A DNA stretch of 64,000 nucleotides from Phycisphaerales bacterium (lineage in GTDB: Bacteria; Planctomycetota; Phycisphaerae; Phycisphaerales; UBA5793): contig JAPKGW010000001.1 of assembly GCA_026647365.1 (NCBI GenBank), forward strand, positions 66,340 to 130,339, in the 5' to 3' direction. The translations under genes and the position numbers were made by a program. This document shows, piece after piece, positions 4,094 to 62,277 of the stretch. How positions within the stretch are numbered: the first letter of the stretch is position 1; each line of letters begins with the position of its first letter. The notes below the pieces were generated by a model, which made no database searches, had not been told where the DNA came from, and saw nothing but the letters and a program-made list of their open reading frames with translations.

Positions 4094-5686
4094 ATGCATG
4101 CGAGCCGAGGATTATCGTCGATCGCTGCGTGGCTTGCCATTGGTCTGATGGTCGTCGGGCTGCTGCCGACGTCGGTGTTGGCGCAGCGAGGCTTGCCGCA
4201 CCTCATCGAGCCGCCGGAGGGGTCGGTGCAGTTCGGCCGGTCGGTGGCGAGCGGAGGCGATGCCAACGGCGACGGCGTCGATGACCTCTTCATCAGCGAC
4301 CCCGGCTTCGAGGTGGAGGGCGTGCGCGTCGGCCGCTGGTTCGTCTACGACGGAGCGACGCGGGAGGAGATGTGGCGCGCGGTGGGCGACGCGCCGCTGG
4401 GAATTGATGAGTTGAGATGGAGCCACCTGATCGCGGCTGCGTTCATCGGCGACATCGACGGCGACGGGGGAGATGACCTCATCGTCGGGATCCCAACCAC
4501 ATTCCAGCAGCATGGAACAGCGATCGTGTACTCCGGGCGCACGGGCGATGTGCTGCACCGCTACGACGGCGGTGAGCATCACTACCTCGGCATCGACGTC
4601 AGCGGCGTCGGGGATTTGAACAGAGACGGCACGCCCGACTTCGCCTTCGCCGGGCGCTACTACGCCGCCGATGGACACGTCTCGTTTCGATCAGGGAGAG
4701 ACGGAAGTGAACTGCATCGAATCGAGATTCCCTATCCACGGCGCATTCGAGGCATCGGCGACATCGACGGCGACGGACACGATGACGCCGCGGTCAGTTC
4801 CTGGCGCCAATACATCGAAAATGCGCGGGTCTTCATTCTGTCGGGCCGGACGGGCGAAACGACGATCCTGAGCGCGCCGGGCGGATCCCGCGAGGACCGC
4901 TTCGCCTACACGATGGCCGGCAGTGCAGATGTCACCGGCGATGGCGTACCTGATCTTGCGGTGCGAGGCGGTCGTGAGAACAGTGATGGCGTCATCTACA
5001 TCTACTCAGGCGCCACGCTCGAAATCGTCAGCACCATCACGGATTTGACTGAGCGCTTCGGCCTTCGGGCGACGCGGATCGAGTTCGTCGACGTCAACGG
5101 AGACGGCCTGTTCGAAGTCTTCGCCGACTGGGGCGGGAGGGTGAGCATCTACGAGCCGCTGTCGGGTCGAATGATCCGGCACCATCCGACCTCGCTGATC
5201 CAAAACAGCCAGGGCGTCATCTACGGCAGCGAATCCGCCGCAGGCCACTTCAATGGCGACGTCTTCGCTGACGTAGCCAATCTGGTCTACACCAGCAGCG
5301 CGGAGATGCGTCGGGTCGGTCTCTTTGCCGGCGCGCCCCTGCTTCTGAGCACCTCGGAGACCAGCTCTGGCAGCAGGCTTCGGCGCGGTCAGAAGTACGT
5401 CTTCATTGTCCACGGCGCGCAGAGCGGCCGGCGCGTCTACTTCCTCGCCTCGCCCACGGGCCACGGCTGCACCTTCATCCCGCGCCTCGGAGTCTGCATC
5501 GACCTCGACCCGCGCATCCACCGCCTGGGCGACGCTCTTACCAACAGCGAGGGCTTCGCCCAACTCTCGCTCGAAATCGGTACCAACGTCCCCCTCGGCC
5601 CGGCCTGGCTCCAGGCGATCGACCCCGCCGACCCCAGTCGCGGCGCGATCACGAGCAATGTCCTGCAGGTGGAGATCGTCCAGTAG
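4094..5686 (+). CDS. secreted FG-GAP repeat protein, tandem paralogue of 2157..3722
   Basis: The track ORF starts at 4031. I prefer ATG 4094, which has AGGAGG at 4082..4087 and a signal peptide MHASRGLSSIAAWLAIGLMVVGLLPTSVLAQ. The mature N-terminus RGLPHLIEPPEGSVQFGRSVASGGDA and the C-terminus GCTFIPRLGVCIDLD..WLQAIDPADPSRGAITSNV closely match the upstream gene. Confidence 0.8.
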   Translation: MHASRGLSSIAAWLAIGLMVVGLLPTSVLAQRGLPHLIEPPEGSVQFGRSVASGGDANGDGVDDLFISDPGFEVEGVRVGRWFVYDGATREEMWRAVGDAPLGIDELRWSHLIAAAFIGDIDGDGGDDLIVGIPTTFQQHGTAIVYSGRTGDVLHRYDGGEHHYLGIDVSGVGDLNRDGTPDFAFAGRYYAADGHVSFRSGRDGSELHRIEIPYPRRIRGIGDIDGDGHDDAAVSSWRQYIENARVFILSGRTGETTILSAPGGSREDRFAYTMAGSADVTGDGVPDLAVRGGRENSDGVIYIYSGATLEIVSTITDLTERFGLRATRIEFVDVNGDGLFEVFADWGGRVSIYEPLSGRMIRHHPTSLIQNSQGVIYGSESAAGHFNGDVFADVANLVYTSSAEMRRVGLFAGAPLLLSTSETSSGSRLRRGQKYVFIVHGAQSGRRVYFLASPTGHGCTFIPRLGVCIDLDPRIHRLGDALTNSEGFAQLSLEIGTNVPLGPAWLQAIDPADPSRGAITSNVLQVEIVQ

Positions 5687-7008: not shown

Positions 7009-7172
7009 GCAGAGGTTGAGTCGGGGACGGGGCATCGAGTCGTCACACCCCCCGAAAATAGACCCGTCCCTATTTTCGGGAGGGGGCGTCGAGGGGTCGG
7101 CGGGAACCAGCGGCGCCCGCGGACGAATCATCGGCTGCTTCCGAAGGCTATCGGGGCTTGAGGATGCGGAAG

Positions 7173-9800: not shown

Positions 9801-12008
9801 ATGCGTCGTCAGACCTCCAGGCTGACAATTCTGATACCAACGATCGTCTTCTTGACGGTCGCCGGGATGTTCGCCGTTCTCTGGCGGGCCGTACTGGACC
9901 GGGCCGTGGGCGAGATTGACCTGCGCACGGACCTGACGGCTGAGCAGATCGCCTCTCGACTCGCCGAGCACTTCAAGTTCCGCATCGACCTTCTGCGGCG
10001 CATCGCGCACGATTGGGAGACGGGCTACATCAACTCCGCGGAGGATTTCGATCGGTCCGTCCGCTCGGCTCTCTTCGACTCGCCGGAGTTGTCGTCAGTG
10101 GCGTGGCTGGACGAGGCGGGACAGATGCGCTGGGTCGTCTCGTTCGATCCGGAGACCGGGGCAGCGGGGCACAACCTCACGCCCAACGGCCTGGCGCACG
10201 CCGCGTTCCGCAAGGCCGTTGAGACCGGCCGCTGGACCCTCACTCCCCTGCTCGACCTGCGCCCCGGTGAGAACGGCGTGGTCGCATACCTCCCCCTGAG
10301 CGACGAACAGCAGAGCCACGGCGCTTTGAGTACGACGATTCACGCCGGCATGCTCATTGAAGCCTGTCTCGCGTCCTCTGTCAGAGACAATTTCACCTGC
10401 TCCGTGTGGGACGGCGGTGAGTTGATCTATGGTGAAGGGCCTGCCGCGCCGGCGCCCTCCCGATACACGCAAACCCGCCCTGCGATCCTCGGTCAGCGAT
10501 CCTGGGACGTGTCGCTTACGCCCAACGCGGCCATGCTCGGGGACACGCTCACGGGAGGAATCCCGTTGATCATGGTGCTCGGGTTGCTCGCTGCGGGCGG
10601 TCTGGCGTTCGTCTCCGCCCGCCTGCTCACCAGCCAGGCGCGCCTGCGCGAGAACGAAGAGCGCCTTCGCGCGGTGGCCGAACACATCCCCGGAGTCATC
10701 TACTCATACGAATCCACGCCGGGCCGGCCTCGGTCGCTCATCTACCTCGGGCCGGGGCTTGCGTCGATCATCGGCCCGGTCTCCGCTGCAGCCGTGGCGA
10801 AGAAATTCGATCTGCTCTTCGACCGCATTCACCCCGAGGATCGACCGCGGGTTGCTGAGGCCGCGCGGCGCGGCGAAGCAGGCGACGGGACCGTCGATTG
10901 CGAGGCTCGCCTGCAAACCGACGACGGGTCGTATCGCTGGATCCGTTCCCTCAGCCGGCCCCTTCCGATCGATCGCGACGTCACGCGCTGGCACATCGTC
11001 CTCATTGACATCACCGAGCATCGTAAGATCGTCGATGCACTGCGCGAGAGCGAAGAGCGCTACCGCCTGCTCATCGAGTCCAGTCCGGTGGGCGTGATGA
11101 TCCACCGCGACGGCATGTACCAGTTCGTCAATCCCGCCGCGCTGCGCCTGCTGGGCTACGAACGCTCCGAGGACCTCGTGGGGCGGAGCGTCTTCGACAT
11201 CGTCCCGCCTGAGCGCCACGAGGCAATCCGCGCCCGGATCGCTGCCCTGGGCGCTCAAACTCATTCGGTACGCTTCGAGGATGAGCGGCTGCTGCGGCGC
11301 GATGGAAGCATTCTCAACGTGGAGGTCATTGTCAGCACGATCAACTTCGCAGGCGGTCCGGCGAGACAGGTGCTCATTCTGGACGTCACCGAGCAGCGCC
11401 AGGCCGAGCGGCGCCAGCACCTTCTGATGCGCGAACTCGACCACCGCGTCAAGAACAACCTCGCATCGGTTCTCGCGCTCCTCGATCAGACGGCGGCGAG
11501 CACGCGCGACATCGACGAGTTCCGCCGCAAGTTCGCCGATCGCATCAAGGCCATGGCGCGGACCCACGAGATGCTGGCGCGGACGAAGTGGAGCGGCGTG
11601 GACCTCGCGGAGATCGTTCGCCTCTGCATTGCGCCGTACGTCGTCGAACAGGGGCATCGCGTCCGACTCGACGGCCTGCCGATCGTCATCCCGCCACGAC
11701 CCGCTCTTCCCATTGGCCTGGCGCTGCACGAACTCGCCACCAACGCGATCAAGCACGGGTCGCTCTCGACTCCGCAGGGGCGCATCCGCATTTCGTGGGA
11801 ACGGCACGACGGGCACATCCAACTTCATTGGGTCGAGGCGGATGGACCGCCGGCCGCCACGCCGCGCGACCACGGCACCGGTTTGCGCCTCGTGCGCGGC
11901 CTGGTCGAGTTTGAACTCGGCGGCACGGTGGACTTTCAGTTCAATCCCGAAGGCCTGGAGTGCATGCTCTCGATCGACGCCGCAGCCTTCACGGACGAGA
12001 CCCGCTGA
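9801..12008 (+). CDS. membrane sensor histidine kinase: periplasmic domain, two PAS domains, HWE/HisKA_2 kinase core
   Basis: 735 aa. TM1 is LTILIPTIVFLTVAGMFAVLW and TM2 is IPLIMVLGLLAAGGLAFV. PAS-like segments are present (YRWIRSLSRP, ESEERYRLLIESSPVGVMIH). The H-box is ELDHRVKNNLASV, the N-box is HELATNAIKHG, the HWE-type block is LHWVEADGPP, and GTGLRLV follows. No response regulator is adjacent. Confidence 0.9.
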   Translation: MRRQTSRLTILIPTIVFLTVAGMFAVLWRAVLDRAVGEIDLRTDLTAEQIASRLAEHFKFRIDLLRRIAHDWETGYINSAEDFDRSVRSALFDSPELSSVAWLDEAGQMRWVVSFDPETGAAGHNLTPNGLAHAAFRKAVETGRWTLTPLLDLRPGENGVVAYLPLSDEQQSHGALSTTIHAGMLIEACLASSVRDNFTCSVWDGGELIYGEGPAAPAPSRYTQTRPAILGQRSWDVSLTPNAAMLGDTLTGGIPLIMVLGLLAAGGLAFVSARLLTSQARLRENEERLRAVAEHIPGVIYSYESTPGRPRSLIYLGPGLASIIGPVSAAAVAKKFDLLFDRIHPEDRPRVAEAARRGEAGDGTVDCEARLQTDDGSYRWIRSLSRPLPIDRDVTRWHIVLIDITEHRKIVDALRESEERYRLLIESSPVGVMIHRDGMYQFVNPAALRLLGYERSEDLVGRSVFDIVPPERHEAIRARIAALGAQTHSVRFEDERLLRRDGSILNVEVIVSTINFAGGPARQVLILDVTEQRQAERRQHLLMRELDHRVKNNLASVLALLDQTAASTRDIDEFRRKFADRIKAMARTHEMLARTKWSGVDLAEIVRLCIAPYVVEQGHRVRLDGLPIVIPPRPALPIGLALHELATNAIKHGSLSTPQGRIRISWERHDGHIQLHWVEADGPPAATPRDHGTGLRLVRGLVEFELGGTVDFQFNPEGLECMLSIDAAAFTDETR

Positions 12009-12143
12009 CGGCGCGCCAAACACGCCCGGTCCGGGGAGTGTGTCGTCCAGGATCGTGGCATGGATGTTGGTCGACACGAGTGCCGGGTCAGAACCGTGAG
12101 ACATCACTGAATTCAGACCTCGCCGCATCCCAACCGCCCCGGA

Positions 12144-12236
12144 AAACAAACGGGACAGGTACATTTTATGTCGTTGATTATCAAGCAGTTAGGCAGCGTT
12201 TCCGGGCAGAAATAAATGTACCTGTCCCGTTTGTTT
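12144..12236. repeat. 93-nt hairpin repeat with a perfect 23-bp inverted repeat and 47-nt spacer; solo member of the repeat family that flanks the transposase at 60.2-61.3 kb
   Basis: AAACAAACGGGACAGGTACATTT (12144..12166) and its exact reverse complement AAATGTACCTGTCCCGTTTGTTT (12214..12236) are separated by an AT-rich 47-nt spacer. It sits in the convergent gap between the kinase stop (12008) and the malic enzyme stop (12246). Confidence 0.95.
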
Positions 12237-12245
12237 CACGGACAC

Positions 12246-13937
12246 TCAGGCGGCGTACTCCGGGTACCACATCATCGACGCCACCGCATCTTCGATCGAC
12301 TCGTCGCGGAGCAGGCGGCCGAGGTCGAGGCGCTTGGCTTCTCGCACGACGGCGACGGCGATGCGCCGGGACACCTCGCGCAGGTCGCTTTGATCGGGAT
12401 ACAGCGCCCCTGCGGCAAGGCGATCGGCGGAGATGCACTCCGCCAGCGTGCGGGCGGCGATGAGGAACATCGAGTCCGTTACCTGGCGCGCCTCGGAGAC
12501 GATGCACCCCAGCCCGACGCCGGGAAAGACGAAAACGTTGTTGCCCTGCCCGATGACGTGGCGCCGTCCTTCGTATTCGACAGGCGCGAAGGGGCTGCCC
12601 GTCGCGACCAGCGCCCGTCCCTCCGTCCAGCGGATCACCTCTTCCGGTGTACACTCGGCCTTGGACGTCGGGTTGGAGAAGGGCATGACAATCGGCCGCG
12701 GCGCGTGGCGCGCCATCTCGCGGATGATTTCCTCCCGGAACACACCCGGCTCGGCCGTCGTCCCGATGAGAATGGTCGGCCTGATGTTCGCCACTACGGC
12801 GTCAAGATCGAACGGTCCTTCGCCGCGCAGGCCACACCTTTCCATGTCTTCCCGCGTCCAGGCAAAGGCCCGCTTGTGCGCGTCGCGGATCATGCGATCA
12901 GTGAAGATCAGTCCGCGGCTGTCGAGGAACGCCTGGGCACGGCGGATCGTCGTCTCATCGGCGCCTTCTTCGCGCATCGCGTCGCGCACGAGCCGCCCGA
13001 TGCCGATCCCCGCCGCGCCTGCGCCGAGGTAGACGATGCGCTGATCGCTGAGCCGCTCGCCCGTCGTGCGCAGGGCCGCGAGGATGCCGGCCAGCGCCAC
13101 CGCCGACGTGCCCTGTATGTCATCATTGAAACTCGTCACGCGCAGCCGGTAACGGTCGAGCACCTGGAATGCAATGTTCTTGTGGAAGTCCTCCCACTGA
13201 AGCAGCGCCCTCGGGAACACGGCGGCGACGGCCTCCACGAATCGCTCGATGAACTCCTCGTAGGGCTGGCCGCGAAGTCGCCTGTGCCGCCATCCACGGT
13301 AATAGGGGTCGTTGAGCAGTTCGGCGTTGTCTGTGCCCACGTCGAGGCTGATGGGCAGGCACAGCGAAGGATGAATGCCCGCCGCCGCCGTGTAGAGCGA
13401 GAGTTTCCCGACGGGAATCCCCATACCGCCTGCGCCCTGGTCGCCCAGGCCGAGAATCCGCTCATTGTCCGTCGCCACAATCAGGCGGATGTTCTCATCC
13501 GGCGCGTTGCGAAGGAGGTCGGGGATGCGGTCAATGTCCTCGGGCGTGATCCACAGGCCGCGCGGCTGGCGCATGATGTGGCTGTAACGCTGACACGCGA
13601 GCCCCACCACCGGCGTGTAAACGATCGGCATCAGCTCCGGAAGATTCTCAATGAGCACCCGGTAGAAGAGCGTCTCATTCCGTTCGCGCAGCGCATCGAG
13701 GCCGATGAACTTCTCGAGGTCATCGCGCTTGTCGCGGAGATGTTCGAGTTCAAGGCTGACCTGCTCCTCGATGCTCTGGACGGCGCTCGGCAGCAGGCCG
13801 CGCAGCCTGTACGCATCGCGCTCCTCTGGCGTGAACGCGCAGTCCTTGTTGCGGCGCGGGTCGCGGAGCAGGTTCTTGCCTGTGAGGTCTGAATCGACGG
13901 ATCGTGGACGTCGGGCCGGAGTCTGCAGGAGCGCCAT
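12246..13937 (-). CDS. maeA: NAD(P)-dependent malic enzyme (large, MaeA/SfcA type)
   Basis: The track ORF extends to 14249. I start at ATG 13937 ([10 protein letters not shown], with GGAAGGA upstream), giving 563 aa. Motifs seen: [79 protein letters not shown]. Confidence 0.92.
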
Positions 13938-14205
13938 GGCGGGTTCCTTCCGGTCAAGGCAGGCGCCGGCTTTGGATTGCCGAAACGGCGCGCGTGACCA
14001 GTCCATTGTTCGCCCGGCTGCTGAGAAGGCGAACAGGAAAGCCGCCCTGATTCGACTCGCGCTGTTGATCCGCCTCGGCCGGGCGGGCGCCCAGCCGCCC
14101 ACTGGACTGAAGCGCCTGCAATCGGGCCGGTACGGACAATACCCCTTCATTGAGCACGAGGCGCCGCGCGTTGGCCTTGCGCTCCGGCGGGCGTTACCCT
14201 TGAAC

Positions 14206-14664
14206 ATGAGCGACGCGCTTGAGAGGCCTTCGTGCCTCTCGATCATCATCTCCGACGCCGTCTACCGCGACGAGATCACCAAGAAACTCATCATCGTCGG
14301 AACGTTCAACACGATCCACGCGCAGAAGTTCCCCCACCGGCACGATCACATGAACGTCCTCTTCTCGCTCACCAGCGGGCGGCGGACCTACGACGTGGCT
14401 CTCGCCATCGAGCACGGCGCGTCGGGAACCTCGATCACGGAGATTCACGGCCCGATGCGTCTCGACAATCCGCTGCACATCACCGACGTCAACGTCGAGT
14501 TGCGCAACCTCGAGTATCCTGAGCCGGGCAAGTACTGGGTCACGCTCAAGGTGGACGGCGAGATCATCTGCCAGCGGCCGTTCATGGTGGCCGGGCCGGG
14601 CGCGACGCCCGCCGCACCGCCTCAGCAACTCGGTGAGGACGAACCCGCGCCCGGCGACGCATGA
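14206..14664 (+). CDS. hypothetical protein (152 aa) with Pro/Ala-rich tail
   Basis: This is the first ATG downstream of the divergent malic enzyme start. The sequence [64 protein letters not shown] has protein-like composition. I recognise no family motif. Confidence 0.55.
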
Positions 14665-59185: not shown

Positions 59186-59563
59186 ATGTCCATGATCGCC
59201 AGGCCCCGACATCTCGACATCAAGCGCGATCGCGGCCTCACCATCGAGTGGGAGGACGGCTCGACGACCTTCTATTCCGTGACGTACCTGCGCAAGTGGT
59301 CCCCCTCGGCCGAGGCCCGAACCCTGCGCGAACAACTGGCGAGCAATCCGCTGACGGTCCTTCCCGCGTCTGCGGTGTCCGACGGCAAACCGCTTACCAT
59401 CGTGGACGCCGAGTTCGTCGGAAACTACGCGATCAAGATTCACTTCAGCGACGGTCACGACACGGGGCTGTACTCGTGGGAGTATCTCCTGGAGATCGAC
59501 CCGGCCCGCCAGGCGTCGCGTAAGTCGTTGGAGTCTCCCGTGGTGCGCGAGAGACACGGATGA
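59186..59563 (+). CDS. DUF971-type (gamma-butyrobetaine hydroxylase N-terminal-like) small protein
   Basis: 125 aa. LTIEWEDGSTTFYSVTYLRKWSPSAE and GNYAIKIHFSDGHDTGLYSWEYL match the DUF971 pattern. Confidence 0.75.
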   Translation: MSMIARPRHLDIKRDRGLTIEWEDGSTTFYSVTYLRKWSPSAEARTLREQLASNPLTVLPASAVSDGKPLTIVDAEFVGNYAIKIHFSDGHDTGLYSWEYLLEIDPARQASRKSLESPVVRERHG

Positions 59564-60048
59564 GCGACCGGATCGAGATCGCGCCCCTGCCGTCGCCCGC
59601 GAAGATCGAGGACATCGACTGGCTCGCGCTCGGCACGCCGCGCCCCGATCCCTTCACGCTCCGCCTGACCGTCGGCCCGGCGCACATCAGCCGCGTCATC
59701 CCCCACGTGCCCAACACGACTTTCGTGCAGTGGCTCGAATCAATGGCGGTCGCACACTGCGCTTCGCTTGGATTCGACGACGCCTGGCATCGGCAGCGCG
59801 ACCTGATCTGGTTCGTGCGGCGGCACGAGATCGACTACCTCGCCGAAGCGCTCGAAGGCGATGATCTCGTGATGGCGACGTGGGTCGAGGGATTCAACAA
59901 GACGAGTTCGCCCCGGCGGTACCTCATCTGCCGCCCGCGCGACGAGGCCGTGATCTGCCGGGCGATGACGGTGTGGGTGCTCATGTCGCGCAGCACGCGG
60001 CGGCCGCAGCGCATCGACCCCGGCGTGGCGGCGGCGTACCTGGCTTGA
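59560..60048 (+). CDS. hotdog-fold acyl-CoA thioesterase (4HBT/YbgC-like)
   Basis: 162 aa. The length and the blocks VPNTTFVQWLE..AH, WFVRRHEIDYL and VMATWV fit the 4HBT family. The ATG overlaps the upstream stop (ATGA). Confidence 0.65.
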   Translation: MSDRIEIAPLPSPAKIEDIDWLALGTPRPDPFTLRLTVGPAHISRVIPHVPNTTFVQWLESMAVAHCASLGFDDAWHRQRDLIWFVRRHEIDYLAEALEGDDLVMATWVEGFNKTSSPRRYLICRPRDEAVICRAMTVWVLMSRSTRRPQRIDPGVAAAYLA

Positions 60049-60248
60049 TCGTCGCTCGCGCGCCTCGTCTGTTGATGTCTGCGCCGCAAGTGACTCGATC
60101 CGGTCTCTCGTCTCGGCCTGCTTTCCAGCGCGGCGCAAATGGGCAGGCACTTCTTTGGCAGCGCAGACATCATTAAGCCGTGTCTTCACCGTTGAACTTC
60201 TCCCTCAGCACGCGCGATCGCGAAGTCGCAGCGAGCAAGCGAACCAGA

Positions 60249-60375
60249 AAACAAACGGGACAGGTACATTTATTGCCAACCGGATTTATCGCGTAACGAC
60301 TTGAAAATAAAGGACATAAAATGTACCTGTCCCGTTTATTTTGAACGGAAATAAACGTACCTGTCCCGTTTGTTT
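60249..60375 (+). repeat. left 127-nt three-armed repeat module (F - 47 nt - R1 - 15 nt - R2)
   Basis: F is AAACAAACGGGACAGGTACATTT (60249..60271). R1 is AAATGTACCTGTCCCGTTT (60319..60337). R2 is AAACGTACCTGTCCCGTTTGTTT (60353..60375). R1 and R2 are reverse complements of F with one mismatch each. Confidence 0.95.
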
Positions 60376-60423
60376 TTGCCGGGTTCGCCTTGTTTGCAGG
60401 CGCGGGTTGGAATACGCTCGCAC

Positions 60424-61101
60424 ATGCCACGCACCGCTCGACGAACGCCCGGCGGCTATGTCTACCACGTCCTCAATCGAGGCGTCGGCCGACGCACCAT
60501 CTTCGAGAAGGACCATGACTACGAGGCGTTCGAACACATCATGGGCGAATGCCTTGACCAGCATCCGGGCGTCCGCCTGCTCACCTATTGCCTCATGCCC
60601 AACCACTGGCACCTGCTGCTCTGGCCGCGCAGCGACGATGACCTCGCGCCCTTCATGCAGCGCCTCACGTTGACACACGTCTGCCGATGGCAGCGACATC
60701 GGGAGTGCCACGGCACGGGCCACCTCTACCAGGGTCGCTACAAGTCATTCCCCATCCAACAGGACAACCATTTCCTCATCGTGGCGCGATACGTCGAACG
60801 CAACGCGCTCCGCGCCAATCTGGTCAAGCGGGCCGAAGACTGGCCCTGGTCTGGCTTATGGATTCGACAACAGGGCGATGACGAACAGCGTCGCATGCTC
60901 ACGGCCTGGCCGGTCGCGCAACCCCGAAACTGGCTCCGTCTCGTCAACGCTCCGCAAAGCGACAAGGAGCTCGACACGGTGCGAGTGAGCGTCGACCGTG
61001 GACGGCCCTTCGGCTCCGACCAGTGGAGCACGCGCGTCGCACAAGCACTCGGCTTAGACCACACCTTTCGCGAACGAGGCCGACAGCCCAAGACCTCCTG
61101 A
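60424..61101 (+). CDS. HUH / Y1 tyrosine transposase, RayT (REP-associated) / IS200-like family
   Basis: The track ORF starts at 60370 inside repeat arm R2. I prefer ATG 60424 (MPRTARR), giving 225 aa. Motifs seen: GGYVYHVLNRGVGRRTIF, the HUH motif CLMPNHWHLLLWP, GRYKSFPI, and the candidate catalytic Tyr in ARYVERNALRANLV. Confidence 0.85.
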   Translation: MPRTARRTPGGYVYHVLNRGVGRRTIFEKDHDYEAFEHIMGECLDQHPGVRLLTYCLMPNHWHLLLWPRSDDDLAPFMQRLTLTHVCRWQRHRECHGTGHLYQGRYKSFPIQQDNHFLIVARYVERNALRANLVKRAEDWPWSGLWIRQQGDDEQRRMLTAWPVAQPRNWLRLVNAPQSDKELDTVRVSVDRGRPFGSDQWSTRVAQALGLDHTFRERGRQPKTS

Positions 61102-61176
61102 CCGTCACAAGCCCCGCCGGCGACCCAGCCTCGCGAGGCCCAAGCGAGAGATGCGGTTCGCCAGAAACAACCCGCA

Positions 61177-61303
61177 AAGCAAAAGGGACAGGTACATTTG
61201 TTTCGGGACGAAAATCGGCTGTAAGTCTTTGATATACAAGCAGATAAAATGTACCTGTCCCGTTTATTCGGGAACGGAATAAACGTACCTGTCCCTTTTG
61301 TGT
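61177..61303 (+). repeat. right 127-nt three-armed repeat module, same order and spacing as the left one
   Basis: F is AAGCAAAAGGGACAGGTACATTT (61177..61199). A 47-nt spacer follows. R1 is AAATGTACCTGTCCCGTTT (61247..61265). After 15 nt comes R2, AAACGTACCTGTCCCTTTTGTGT (61281..61303). Confidence 0.95.
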
Positions 61304-61350
61304 GAGGATTGCGCGATGCAACTTGCCTGACGGTCTCTCGTACCTCAGGT

Positions 61351-62277
61351 TCAGTCGGCGTCGTCGCCGTTGAGCGTCTCCTTCATCACCCGCCCGCTCA
61401 CGAGGTCGTAGCACGTGGACAGCAGGCCGAGGATGCGGAAGCGGCTCTCGGGGAAGGGCGAAGGGCCGAGACGGCGCACCAGAACGTGCGAGACTTCCGG
61501 CGGCGCCAGACGCGTCTCAAATGAGGCGATCTCCGGCCGAAGGTCGTAGAACGAATCAATCAGGCAATCGAGAGGCTGCGGTTCGACCGCGAGAATCGAA
61601 CGATCGAGCGGTTGATGCGCCGTCGCCGGCCCGGCGCCCGAGTCGATCGTGCGCTTGAGGCGGATGCGCTCGGCGAGTTCGACGGGATCAACGCCGCGGA
61701 TCGTCCATGCGAGCGCAGGCTGGGCGTCAAGGCGCTCGGCGAAGAGGTGGGCGGCGGCGACGGCGTGCTTGCACCACGTCAGTTTGCCGTCGCGCACCTG
61801 AGGGCAGGTGCAGGTGGGCGTCGCCCCCTGCGCGCCGCGGACCGGGAGCAGCGCCATCGCGTGCGCATCGAGCACATCCAGCAGCTCGCGGCTGATCTCG
61901 CCCTCCCCCAGGCCGTGCGCCAGGCGCGCTTCGCCCGAGAGCGAGGAGATGATTCGCTCGCACGCTTCCTGCTCAAACGTAGGCCAGGCGATGGACCAGC
62001 GGTAGGCGCGGGCGCAGCGTCCCTGAATTGTCGACTCGATGCGGCCGGGCCTGACCTCAAGGCTGATGATCTGGCCAAGGCGAGCGTAACTGATGCCCTC
62101 ATCGAAGAGCGCCTGATCACTCACGCATGCGCGGACGTCGTCGAGCCAGCGCCGCGTGAGCGGGTGAGTGCCGAGCCGATCAACGCGAAGGCTGAGTTTG
62201 ACCCCGCGCTGCACGCGGCGAGGCTTATCAGGCAGGCGGCGCGGATTCGGCGATGGGGAGGAGGGGGTGGAGGTCAT
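61351..62277 (-). CDS. SWIM zinc-finger protein
   Basis: 308 aa. The SWIM signature is C.C..(n)..C.H in TCTCPQVRDGKLTWCKHAVAAAHL. The ATG overlaps the stop of the upstream SNF2 gene (ATGA). Confidence 0.8.
   Translation of the reverse strand: MTSTPSSPSPNPRRLPDKPRRVQRGVKLSLRVDRLGTHPLTRRWLDDVRACVSDQALFDEGISYARLGQIISLEVRPGRIESTIQGRCARAYRWSIAWPTFEQEACERIISSLSGEARLAHGLGEGEISRELLDVLDAHAMALLPVRGAQGATPTCTCPQVRDGKLTWCKHAVAAAHLFAERLDAQPALAWTIRGVDPVELAERIRLKRTIDSGAGPATAHQPLDRSILAVEPQPLDCLIDSFYDLRPEIASFETRLAPPEVSHVLVRRLGPSPFPESRFRILGLLSTCYDLVSGRVMKETLNGDDAD

Follow-up and report, generated by a model that had tools for sequence, protein, structure and literature searches.

The window analyzed here, 64 kb of a Phycisphaerales genome (assembly GCA_026647365.1, contig JAPKGW010000001.1, positions 66,340 to 130,339), carries what is most probably a locus of the REPtron/TIRtron type, that is, a single-copy RAYT-like HUH-Y1 gene that sits amid clustered copies of its cognate repeat. 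This repeat consists of short arms that, in forward (F) and reverse (R) orientation, form a three-armed module on either side of the gene and a two-armed 93-nt hairpin elsewhere in the window. This is not a new type of system and belongs to the known REPtron/TIRtron kind. What is new is the example from Phycisphaerales, in a little-studied phylum; the 93-nt doublet, whose loop is conserved between organisms; the presence, on either side of the gene, of complete three-armed modules in direct orientation; and the filled-site/empty-site pair.

The coding sequence starts with the ATG at 60424, which is where the homologues start with MPRTAR. Its product matches the Pfam domain Y1_Tnp (PF01797) over profile positions 6 to 121 of 121 with a score of 50.3 bits, compared with a cutoff of 23 (E value of 3.1e-13). 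It contains the HUH motif in the form H61-W62-H63, the catalytic Y123 within YVERN(A), and a WPWSG motif. H61-W62-H63 aligns with the H-M-H of Escherichia coli TnpAREP, and Y123 aligns with the Tyr of its YIYINP. In an alignment of 36 family members, H61-W62-H63, Y102-Q103, Y123, N127, and W140/W142 are invariant and a C-terminal PxG...W...L...GR motif is conserved, while at position 128 nearly all members have Ala and a few have Pro. The only NCBIfam model matched by the protein is REP_Tyr_transpos (NF047646), which also matches all 36 members; the IS200 model does not match the protein itself and recognizes only 2 of the 36, at an E value of 0.1. A profile of the family retrieves E. coli TnpAREP (PDB 4ER8) with an E value of 2.2e-7, versus 4.7e-4 for the ISDra2 TnpA. 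Likewise, the AlphaFold (AF2) model (mean predicted local distance difference test score [pLDDT] of 91.9) has 4er8_A as its best PDB match in Foldseek (3.2e-6; target-normalized template modeling [TM] score of 0.71), followed by the ISDra2 and IS608 TnpA proteins (6e-5 to 1e-3). Judging from the profile comparisons and the predicted fold, the protein is a Y1 HUH enzyme that falls on the RAYT side and is nearer to TnpAREP than to the IS200/IS608 TnpA.

Several features set this protein apart from the textbook RAYTs: YVERNA in place of Y---NP, NHWH, YQ in place of WQ, and a C-terminal domain of ~80 amino acids (aa). This domain is helical, confidently predicted, and ends in an AT-hook-like RGR(Q)P (RGRQP in this protein); the Pfam AT_hook model gives a weak match in 4 of the 36 aligned members. 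Homologues are numerous: a word-indexed search returned 7,941 matches, the best 120 of which are 57 to 73% identical over the full length, and an exhaustive search yielded 681 clusters (at 50% identity) with E values of ≤1e-30. Within 71 kb, i.e., the window and 7 kb of a conspecific contig, this is the only gene of the catalytic type.

The arm, AAACGGGACAGGTACATTT, occurs eight times at three loci in the window, as an earlier note on this DNA, made from the letters alone, had described; only 0.04 occurrences are expected from shuffled sequences. The search, for ACGGGACAGGTACATTT with up to three mismatches permitted, found it at 12150(+), 12214(-), 60255(+), 60319(-), 60353(-), 61183(+), 61247(-), and 61281(-), in each case with no more than two mismatches. 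None of the shuffles reached eight matches, and a 19-mer search relaxed to four mismatches added no further arm in the 64-kb window. The general design of the arm, over 19 to 24 nt, is an A-rich frame, CGGGACAGGTAC, and a T-rich frame.

Each of the two flanking modules (Table 1) runs from an F arm through a loop, A+T-rich in the left module, to the R1 arm and, after a 15-nt gap that sets the R1-to-R2 start spacing at 34 nt in both flanks, to the R2 arm. The modules are direct, in register, 928 nt apart, and on the same strand as the gene, and they are identical in 93 of 127 ungapped positions (73%). The F-R1 loop measures 47 nt at all three loci in the window. The F arm can pair with either R1 or R2: in the left module, 60248-60271 pairs with 60319-60342 in a 24-nt stem with 96% complementarity, and the alternative pairing of F with R2 extends over 30 nt (93%). 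The stem of the right module is 19 nt long (95%), and that of the copy at 12 kb is 28 nt long (93%). As single-stranded DNA (ssDNA), the modules fold with -27 to -34 kcal/mol (z scores of -6.3 to -8.0), and the F-47-R doublets at the three loci have fold z scores of -6 to -8. Between them, the R1 tail and the R2 head make up a small 9-bp hairpin, which differs between the two flanks by one compensatory pair change and can be seen in the right module's centroid structure. R2, the third arm, repeats R1 as a 34-nt tandem duplicate, and tandem arms recur across the family. The 12-kb copy is without a third arm and, as set by loop homology, has the orientation opposite to that of both flanks; it lies between the convergent open reading frames 9801-12008(+) and 12246-14249(-). 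Loop identity is 49% between the flanks and 57 to 66% between the flanks and the 12-kb copy.

The earlier note fared well on these basic points. Its spacings of 47 and 15 nt, its statement that both flanks point with the gene, and its assignment of the HUH motif and of the Tyr downstream of it as catalytic residues were all borne out, the latter by the alignment with the catalytic positions of TnpAREP. The Y1_Tnp match that it anticipated was found, and its preference for a RAYT-type protein over an IS200 TnpA agrees with the profile, the predicted fold, and the NCBIfam models. The stems (24, 19, and 28 nt) turned out to be longer than it had stated. A planctomycete host, which it had considered, is confirmed by the pyruvate kinase encoded in the window, which is 87% identical to one from a Phycisphaerales bacterium.

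Table 1. Coordinates of the gene, the repeat modules, and related features in the window and in other contigs
Feature	Sequence	Position	Strand	Details
Y1 HUH endonuclease/transposase gene, RAYT/TIRYT type	Window	60424..61101	+	225 aa
Left three-armed module	Window	60249..60375	+	F-47-R1-15-R2
Left module arms	Window	F 60253-60271; loop 60272-60318; R1 60319-60337; R2 60353-60371		
Right three-armed module	Window	61177..61303	+	Order and orientation as in left module
Right module arms	Window	F 61181-61199; loop 61200-61246; R1 61247-61265; R2 61281-61299		
Small 9-bp hairpin, R1 tail/R2 head	Window	60333..60357	+	CGTTTATTT-N7-AAATAAACG
Right-module counterpart of 9-bp hairpin	Window	61261-61285		CGTTTATTC-N7-GAATAAACG
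Dispersed two-armed 93-nt copy	Window	12143..12237	-	Arms 12148-12166 and 12214-12232; 47-nt loop
Presence/absence block	Window	60058..61358	.	Present in window and L159 (same species); absent in L165 and L166
Degenerate direct copy of 61359-61412	Window	60182..60232	+	~51 nt, 16 nt upstream of left module
Same-core hairpins	L009	3848-3898, 4335-4385, 7092-7139		
Same-core hairpin	L016	2416-2461		
Same-core hairpin	L073	517-560		
Same-core hairpin	L113	1166-1234		
Same-core hairpin	L068	6478-6539		
Same-core hairpin	L167	3430-3490		
Same-core hairpin	L049	1-50		

The association of the arms with the gene extends beyond this genome. We read the flanks of eight fetched loci that encode homologues with 58 to 73% identity and found arms of the same design adjoining the gene in all eight. 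Their number and arrangement vary. L158 has single arms, F at 31 nt upstream of the ATG and R at 20 nt past the stop codon; L127 has an F arm upstream and two tandem R arms with a 32-nt period downstream; and L157 has five F arms upstream and two R arms downstream. The closest homologue (L154; 73%) is preceded by an F-loop-R hairpin and followed by one R arm, while in L155 tandem F arms with GGGACGGGTAC are found upstream and only a degenerate remnant downstream. In the three remaining loci the same altered arm is seen on both sides of the gene: AATAGGGACGGGTCTATTT in L128, AAAAGGGG(G/A)TAAGTCCAAT in L130, a deltaproteobacterial metagenome-assembled genome, and AACGGGGACAGGTCCAGTT in Posidoniimonas polymericola (L132), where an F-F-F-R cluster and an F-R hairpin follow within the next 4 kb. 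Altogether, 7 of the 8 homologue loci have arms on both sides, each with the same variant on the two sides.

Two plasmid genes, from Rhodospirillum rubrum and Pseudomonas aeruginosa, encode more distant homologues with 30 to 33% identity over the full length (98 to 100% of the query) and YIELNP-type motifs. The R. rubrum gene has AAAAGGGGTCAGACCCC upstream and its complement directly past the stop codon; the P. aeruginosa gene has ATAAAGGGGACAGATTTATTTTCC in tandem upstream and inverted directly past the stop codon. The arms of these plasmid genes carry GGGGTCAG or GGGGACAG, in a layout like that of the closer homologues; an F arm upstream and an R arm downstream are seen at the locus in the window, at 7 of the 8 homologue loci, and at both plasmid loci. 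Across the lineages, the arms share a core of GGGGACAG/GGGACRGG, and the rest of the arm varies by lineage. Arm sequence and protein lineage thus vary together, with the core in common, and this, along with the occurrence of the same variant on both sides of a gene, is what a cognate pair of enzyme and site predicts. The F arm ends 31 to 36 nt before the ATG in 6 of the 8 homologue loci.

Three of these upstream regions deserve a comment. TTGAC(A/C) directly follows the upstream arm in L130 (positions ~5000 to 5052), L132 (~9950 to 10000), and L168 (~1440 to 1500), and in two of the three, TAGCCT or TAGCTT is found 17 nt beyond TTGACA/TTGACC and ends 6 nt before the ATG, which suggests a promoter that abuts the arm and a nearly leaderless mRNA. 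In addition, more distant Y1_Tnp genes were seen near the homologue in L157 (11064-11576, minus strand) and in L165 (13091-13627, minus strand; 28% identity to the window protein). Therefore, several Y1 lineages coexist in these two genomes.

The arms are also found away from any such gene. A scan of JGI metagenomes with the exact 19-mer arm detected it in 21 contigs. In 8 of the 21, it forms inverted doublets, with a 47-nt loop in three (L134, L137, and L141) and loops of 43, 40, 35, or 17 nt in the others, and the L149 contig has tandem R arms. In tblastn searches of the arm-bearing loci with the protein, the dispersed arms were not beside a homologue, and none of the 21 metagenome contigs encoded one within the stretches fetched. 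The units in L137 and L141 are 86 to 88% identical to positions 12145-12236 of the window over ~92 nt, loop included, while their flanks show no similarity to the window; the six 47-nt loops are 36 to 85% identical in pairwise comparisons. Hence the replicated unit includes the loop, which decays more quickly than the arms do, a behavior also reported for REPINs (PMC3337134). Relatives have loops of 31, 35, 40, and 43 nt, and the 47-nt length is a shared-descent feature of one subfamily. By these sequence comparisons, the 93-nt doublet is a dispersed REPIN-like unit and not a local duplication, in agreement with the earlier note. The Logan contigs that encode the exact protein, from more than 20 sequencing runs, are all ~960 nt long and end inside the modules, as expected if the k-mers there recur elsewhere in the genome; this lends indirect support to dispersal within the host.

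A wider contig scan with the 15-mer GGGACAGGTACRTTT used a pattern that is too short, and the matches listed were mostly due to chance (e.g., in a Collinsella gene). Among the 15-mer matches listed, there are also same-core hairpins from other phyla. Hairpins with the core GGGGACAGGTACA and short or different loops were seen in contigs of Syntrophaceae, Aminicenantes, Omnitrophota, and Planctomycetota and in one IMG/VR contig (Table 1). Those in L049, L113, and L167 have a common GC-rich 31-nt loop and represent a separate doublet family with the same arms. The hairpin in L068 directly follows what appears, by eye, to be the 3' end of a tRNA. The window itself has a single arm of the type AATAGGGACGGGTCTATTT at 7056-7074 (minus strand; context, 7040-7090), directly past a gene end and within a longer palindrome, CCCCCCGAAAATAG...CTATTTTCGGGAGGGGG. 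It matches the L128 arms, which flank a 71%-identical homologue (P0010), in 19 of 19 positions, with 0 such matches expected by chance. This suggests that a second arm family resides in the genome, perhaps along with a second, paralogous enzyme encoded elsewhere.

Comparison of related genomes gives some insight into the history of the locus. A conspecific contig (GCA_900696685.1; 99.7% identity) has the same locus with a few single-nucleotide polymorphisms. In a 98.3%-identical strain (L164; Logan SRR28552070), positions 1 to 60 contain an additional arm (F0), the fourth of the module, at 34 nt upstream of the left F arm, which makes the left module a symmetric F0-F-loop-R1-R2 array; R2 in this strain reads AAATGTACC and not AAACGTACC. 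The number of arms varies within the species, and the three-armed direct layout emphasized in the earlier note, although real, is species specific and differs between strains. In the related Phycisphaerales genome L165 (GCA_020852515.1) and in the Logan contig L166, the region is syntenic, with the 4HBT_2 gene and a 309-aa gene abutting each other; no arms were found in 21 kb of the L165 neighborhood, where the only Y1 gene is the 28%-identical one mentioned above. Given this empty syntenic site, the block 60058-61358 was gained or lost as a unit. It extends past the modules by 190 nt on the left and 55 nt on the right. These outer stretches, as well as the 5' and 3' untranslated stretches of the gene, had no match in any fetched locus.

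The sequence 61359-61412 is the 3' end of a 308-aa gene on the minus strand, and its degenerate copy to the left of the gene (Table 1) aligns with a score of 39, compared with 15.9 ± 2.2 (maximum, 24) for shuffled sequences. This ~51-nt duplication is separated from the 4HBT_2 stop codon by 126 nt of unassigned sequence (60056-60181), and L165 is without both the duplication and the spacer. A further candidate copy of the end of the 308-aa gene, at 60049-60105, failed the shuffle test and was rejected; only the 7-mer TCGTCGC (60049 and 61360) is common to the two. Other features of the region are few. A 15-nt inverted repeat (60073-60087/60158-60172; 93% complementarity, copies 70 nt apart) in the unassigned stretch to the left of the left module has no relation to the arm family. 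A scan of 59900-61500 for sigma-70 promoters and intrinsic terminators found none, and an Rfam search of 59500-62000 at E values of ≤10 returned only spurious matches of the microRNA and snoRNA type, far below the gathering scores.

By analogy with the enzymes that it resembles, the protein probably mobilizes the arms. In the scheme that we propose, which is modeled on the IS608/ISDra2/TnpAREP paradigm (PDB 2VJV, 2XM3, and 4ER8; PMC3479197), the 93-nt hairpin, made of two inverted arms and the 47-nt spacer, would be the dispersed nonautonomous unit, similar to REPINs or miniature inverted-repeat transposable elements (MITEs). In ssDNA, probably at replication forks, the F and R arms would pair, and the protein would bind the stem or the G-rich core, with the C-terminal helical domain and its AT-hook-like tail possibly contacting the A/T frames. 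Tyr123, together with the HUH-bound metal, would then cut and rejoin the strand, excising or copying hairpin units. The placement of the upstream arm in the relatives suggests that it abuts the promoter, and binding of the protein there may autoregulate the gene. The surrounding DNA has a G+C content of ~61 to 72%, whereas the arms have A/T frames. We considered the arm as a mini-hairpin like those of the repetitive extragenic palindromes (REPs), with the A/T frames as the stem and the G-rich core as the loop, and rejected this model as the general structure, as single arms fold no better than shuffled sequences. Accordingly, recognition may be of duplex DNA and not of a REP-like hairpin: with unstable single arms, an extra helical domain with an AT-hook-like tail, and A/T frames, recognition of a duplex or stem appears as likely as that of a REP-like hairpin.

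Several observations weigh against a locus of the REPtron/TIRtron type. The score against REP_Tyr_transpos, 65.8 bits, is below the equivalog cutoff of 80; the protein has YVERNA and not the class-2 signature Y---NP; single arms do not fold significantly on their own; the gene-proximal arm, R2, ends 52 nt upstream of the gene and is inverted relative to most homologues; and there are just three arm loci in the 64 kb and none in the next 7 kb, as judged from the conspecific contig. One could instead view the whole 1.1- to 1.3-kb module-gene-module block as a live or recently live autonomous single-strand transposon, the hairpin modules being its ends and the 93-nt elements its internally deleted MITEs. 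The direct, same-strand modules, which share the polarity of the gene, do parallel the left-end and right-end (LE/RE) hairpins of IS200/IS605; the homologues lie in unrelated gene neighborhoods; the related genome has its empty site, without arms, exactly here; and the ~51-nt degenerate duplication of the end of the target gene brackets the unit. However, the boundaries at 60058 and 61358 do not coincide with the module ends, the copy is the only one in 71 kb and has a fixed position among strains that are 98 to 99.7% identical, and modules that are only 73% identical indicate no homogenizing recent transposition. The protein, moreover, is RAYT-like and not IS200-like. To our knowledge, IS200/IS605 elements generate no long target duplications, and the ~51-nt duplication does not fit an insertion of the IS200/IS605 type. 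We regard an autonomous transposon as unlikely; as for the putative "autonomous copy" of the earlier note, the locus does show presence and absence between related genomes, but with boundaries away from the module ends. Similarly tentative, and in our estimate improbable, is the idea that the block represents an intermediate between an autonomous IS200-like element and a domesticated RAYT, i.e., that a gene of the RAYT clade is still mobile, or was so until recently, as a unit with REPIN-like modules at its bounds. Such a unit would have inserted at a convergent gene junction with a ~50-nt target-end duplication and would recognize a core, GGGGACAG..., that is conserved from Pseudomonas plasmids to Planctomycetota, Desulfobacterota, Aminicenantes, and Omnitrophota.

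Still less likely, with very little chance of being correct in our estimate, is an origin of the hairpins as regulatory or structural elements of the host, for instance, bidirectional terminators or sites for protein binding where convergent genes end, that are kept by selection and are not mobilized by the adjacent protein, with the juxtaposition being incidental or purely regulatory. In its favor, each of the three loci is intergenic, and two lie between convergent genes; runs of A and runs of T frame the arms, and a hairpin with a similar core follows the tRNA-like 3' end in L068. Nevertheless, a simple terminator scan found none at the locus, and a 47-nt loop with an A/T-rich top of the stem is unlike intrinsic terminators. 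Near-identical units occur in unrelated contexts, and lineage-specific arms flank 10 of 10 related genes elsewhere (the 8 homologue loci and the 2 plasmid genes), where chance juxtaposition fails as an explanation. Finally, a plain local duplication without a wider family, which the direct, in-register modules 928 nt apart might bring to mind, is refuted by the third locus 48 kb away, by the arms in the 21 metagenome contigs and in relatives, and by loops in the two flanks that are no closer to each other than to the distant copy (49% versus 57 to 66%). The preferred reading remains a RAYT-like gene within a cluster of its cognate repeats.

Such a locus offers a clean, testable pairing, in Planctomycetota, of a 225-aa enzyme (681 clusters) and a short arm whose sequence follows the protein lineage around a shared G-rich core. 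The arms and doublets provide defined oligonucleotide substrates for asking whether such enzymes act on duplex arms, doublet hairpins, or both, and the filled-site/empty-site pair gives a handle on how such loci are acquired. We found no biochemical characterization of a TIRYT in the literature that we looked at; biochemical assays of TIRYTs are proposed as future work in PMC3733652. In Bertels et al. (2017; PMC5581495), the TIRYT/Group-1 RAYTs make up the largest RAYT group, and in Quentin et al. (2018; PMC6006769), the largest class-2 subclass; one survey reports no associated repeats for them, in contrast to this locus.

By its motifs and length, the locus most resembles TnpAY1 subclass 2.1 (Quentin et al., 2018; PMC6006769), which corresponds to RAYT Group 1 (Bertels et al., 2017; PMC5581495). 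Shared traits include a length of ~225 to 240 aa, an aromatic/aliphatic NHxH, a serine motif after the core, a C-terminal extension ending in RGRP, and the full-length alignment to YIELNP-type plasmid proteins at 30 to 33% identity; the motifs NHWH, YQ, and YVERNA of this protein differ. The same survey, PMC6006769, defines the class-2 signature Y---NP and reports no REP-like sequences near subclass 2.1 genes, whereas here the hairpin-forming repeats are obvious; in PMC5581495, Group 1 is described as having modestly repeated flanking 16-mers and some plasmid copies. The IS200/IS605 elements share with this locus the HUH-Y1 fold and the same-strand hairpins on both sides of the gene. However, their similarity to the protein is weaker than that of TnpAREP, the protein has Y---N and not Y---Q and is 225 aa long, compared with ~130 to 150 aa for TnpA, and there is one copy in the window and no tnpB. 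Besides, the ends are complete multiarm repeats shared with a dispersed family, and the presence/absence boundaries miss the hairpins.

The likeness to the REPIN-RAYT systems, or REPtrons (Nunvar, 2010; Bertels and Rainey, 2011), is closer. As in those, a single-copy HUH-Y1 gene is flanked by a dispersed intergenic repeat, the mobile unit is an inverted doublet with a less conserved spacer that forms a long hairpin, and TnpAREP is the best match of the protein in both sequence and fold. On the other hand, the arms contain no canonical REP foot, neither GTAG nor GTGG (GT[AG]G), and each of them is not a stable palindrome; the protein is longer, with its conserved C-terminal domain of ~80 aa, has Y---NA and not Y---NP, and scores below the NCBIfam equivalog cutoff. 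Because the locus falls outside the strict REP definition, the Y---NP signature, and the equivalog cutoff alike, we have not filed it as a canonical RAYT/REPtron. R. baltica is a planctomycete. The earlier note placed planctomycetes outside the groups in which REPtrons are well studied; R. baltica, listed among the REP-bearing species, has been named as rich in TIRYT-type genes and repeats (PMC3733652). In treating the layout as one without a described counterpart, the note went too far: a REPIN is by definition a pair of inverted repeat units with a less conserved spacer between them (PMC3337134), and the arrangement is that of a TIRtron (PMC3733652).

The TIRtrons and their TIRYTs were described as Y1 genes with nonpalindromic inverted flanking repeats that contain a GGGGWSAS motif and occur as singles, dimers, and clusters (Di Nocera, De Gregorio, and Rocco, 2013; PMC3733652). 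Here, too, a RAYT-like Y1 gene is bracketed by inverted, individually nonpalindromic, non-REP repeats at a conserved distance from the coding sequence, and these also occur as singles, dimers, and clusters. The arm in the window, with CGGGACAG, agrees with GGGGWSAS in 7 of 8 positions; L132, L169, and the hairpins of other phyla with GGGGACAG, as well as L168 with GGGGTCAG, agree in all 8, while L128 and L130 deviate. In contrast to a TIRtron with one repeat per side, each flank here consists of a full F-47-R1-15-R2 module, which makes the flanks direct; the gene-proximal upstream arm is inverted; and the dispersed form is a 93-nt hairpin with a loop that is conserved between organisms. In these terms, the locus resembles a REPIN-RAYT system in how it works and a TIRtron in how it is laid out.

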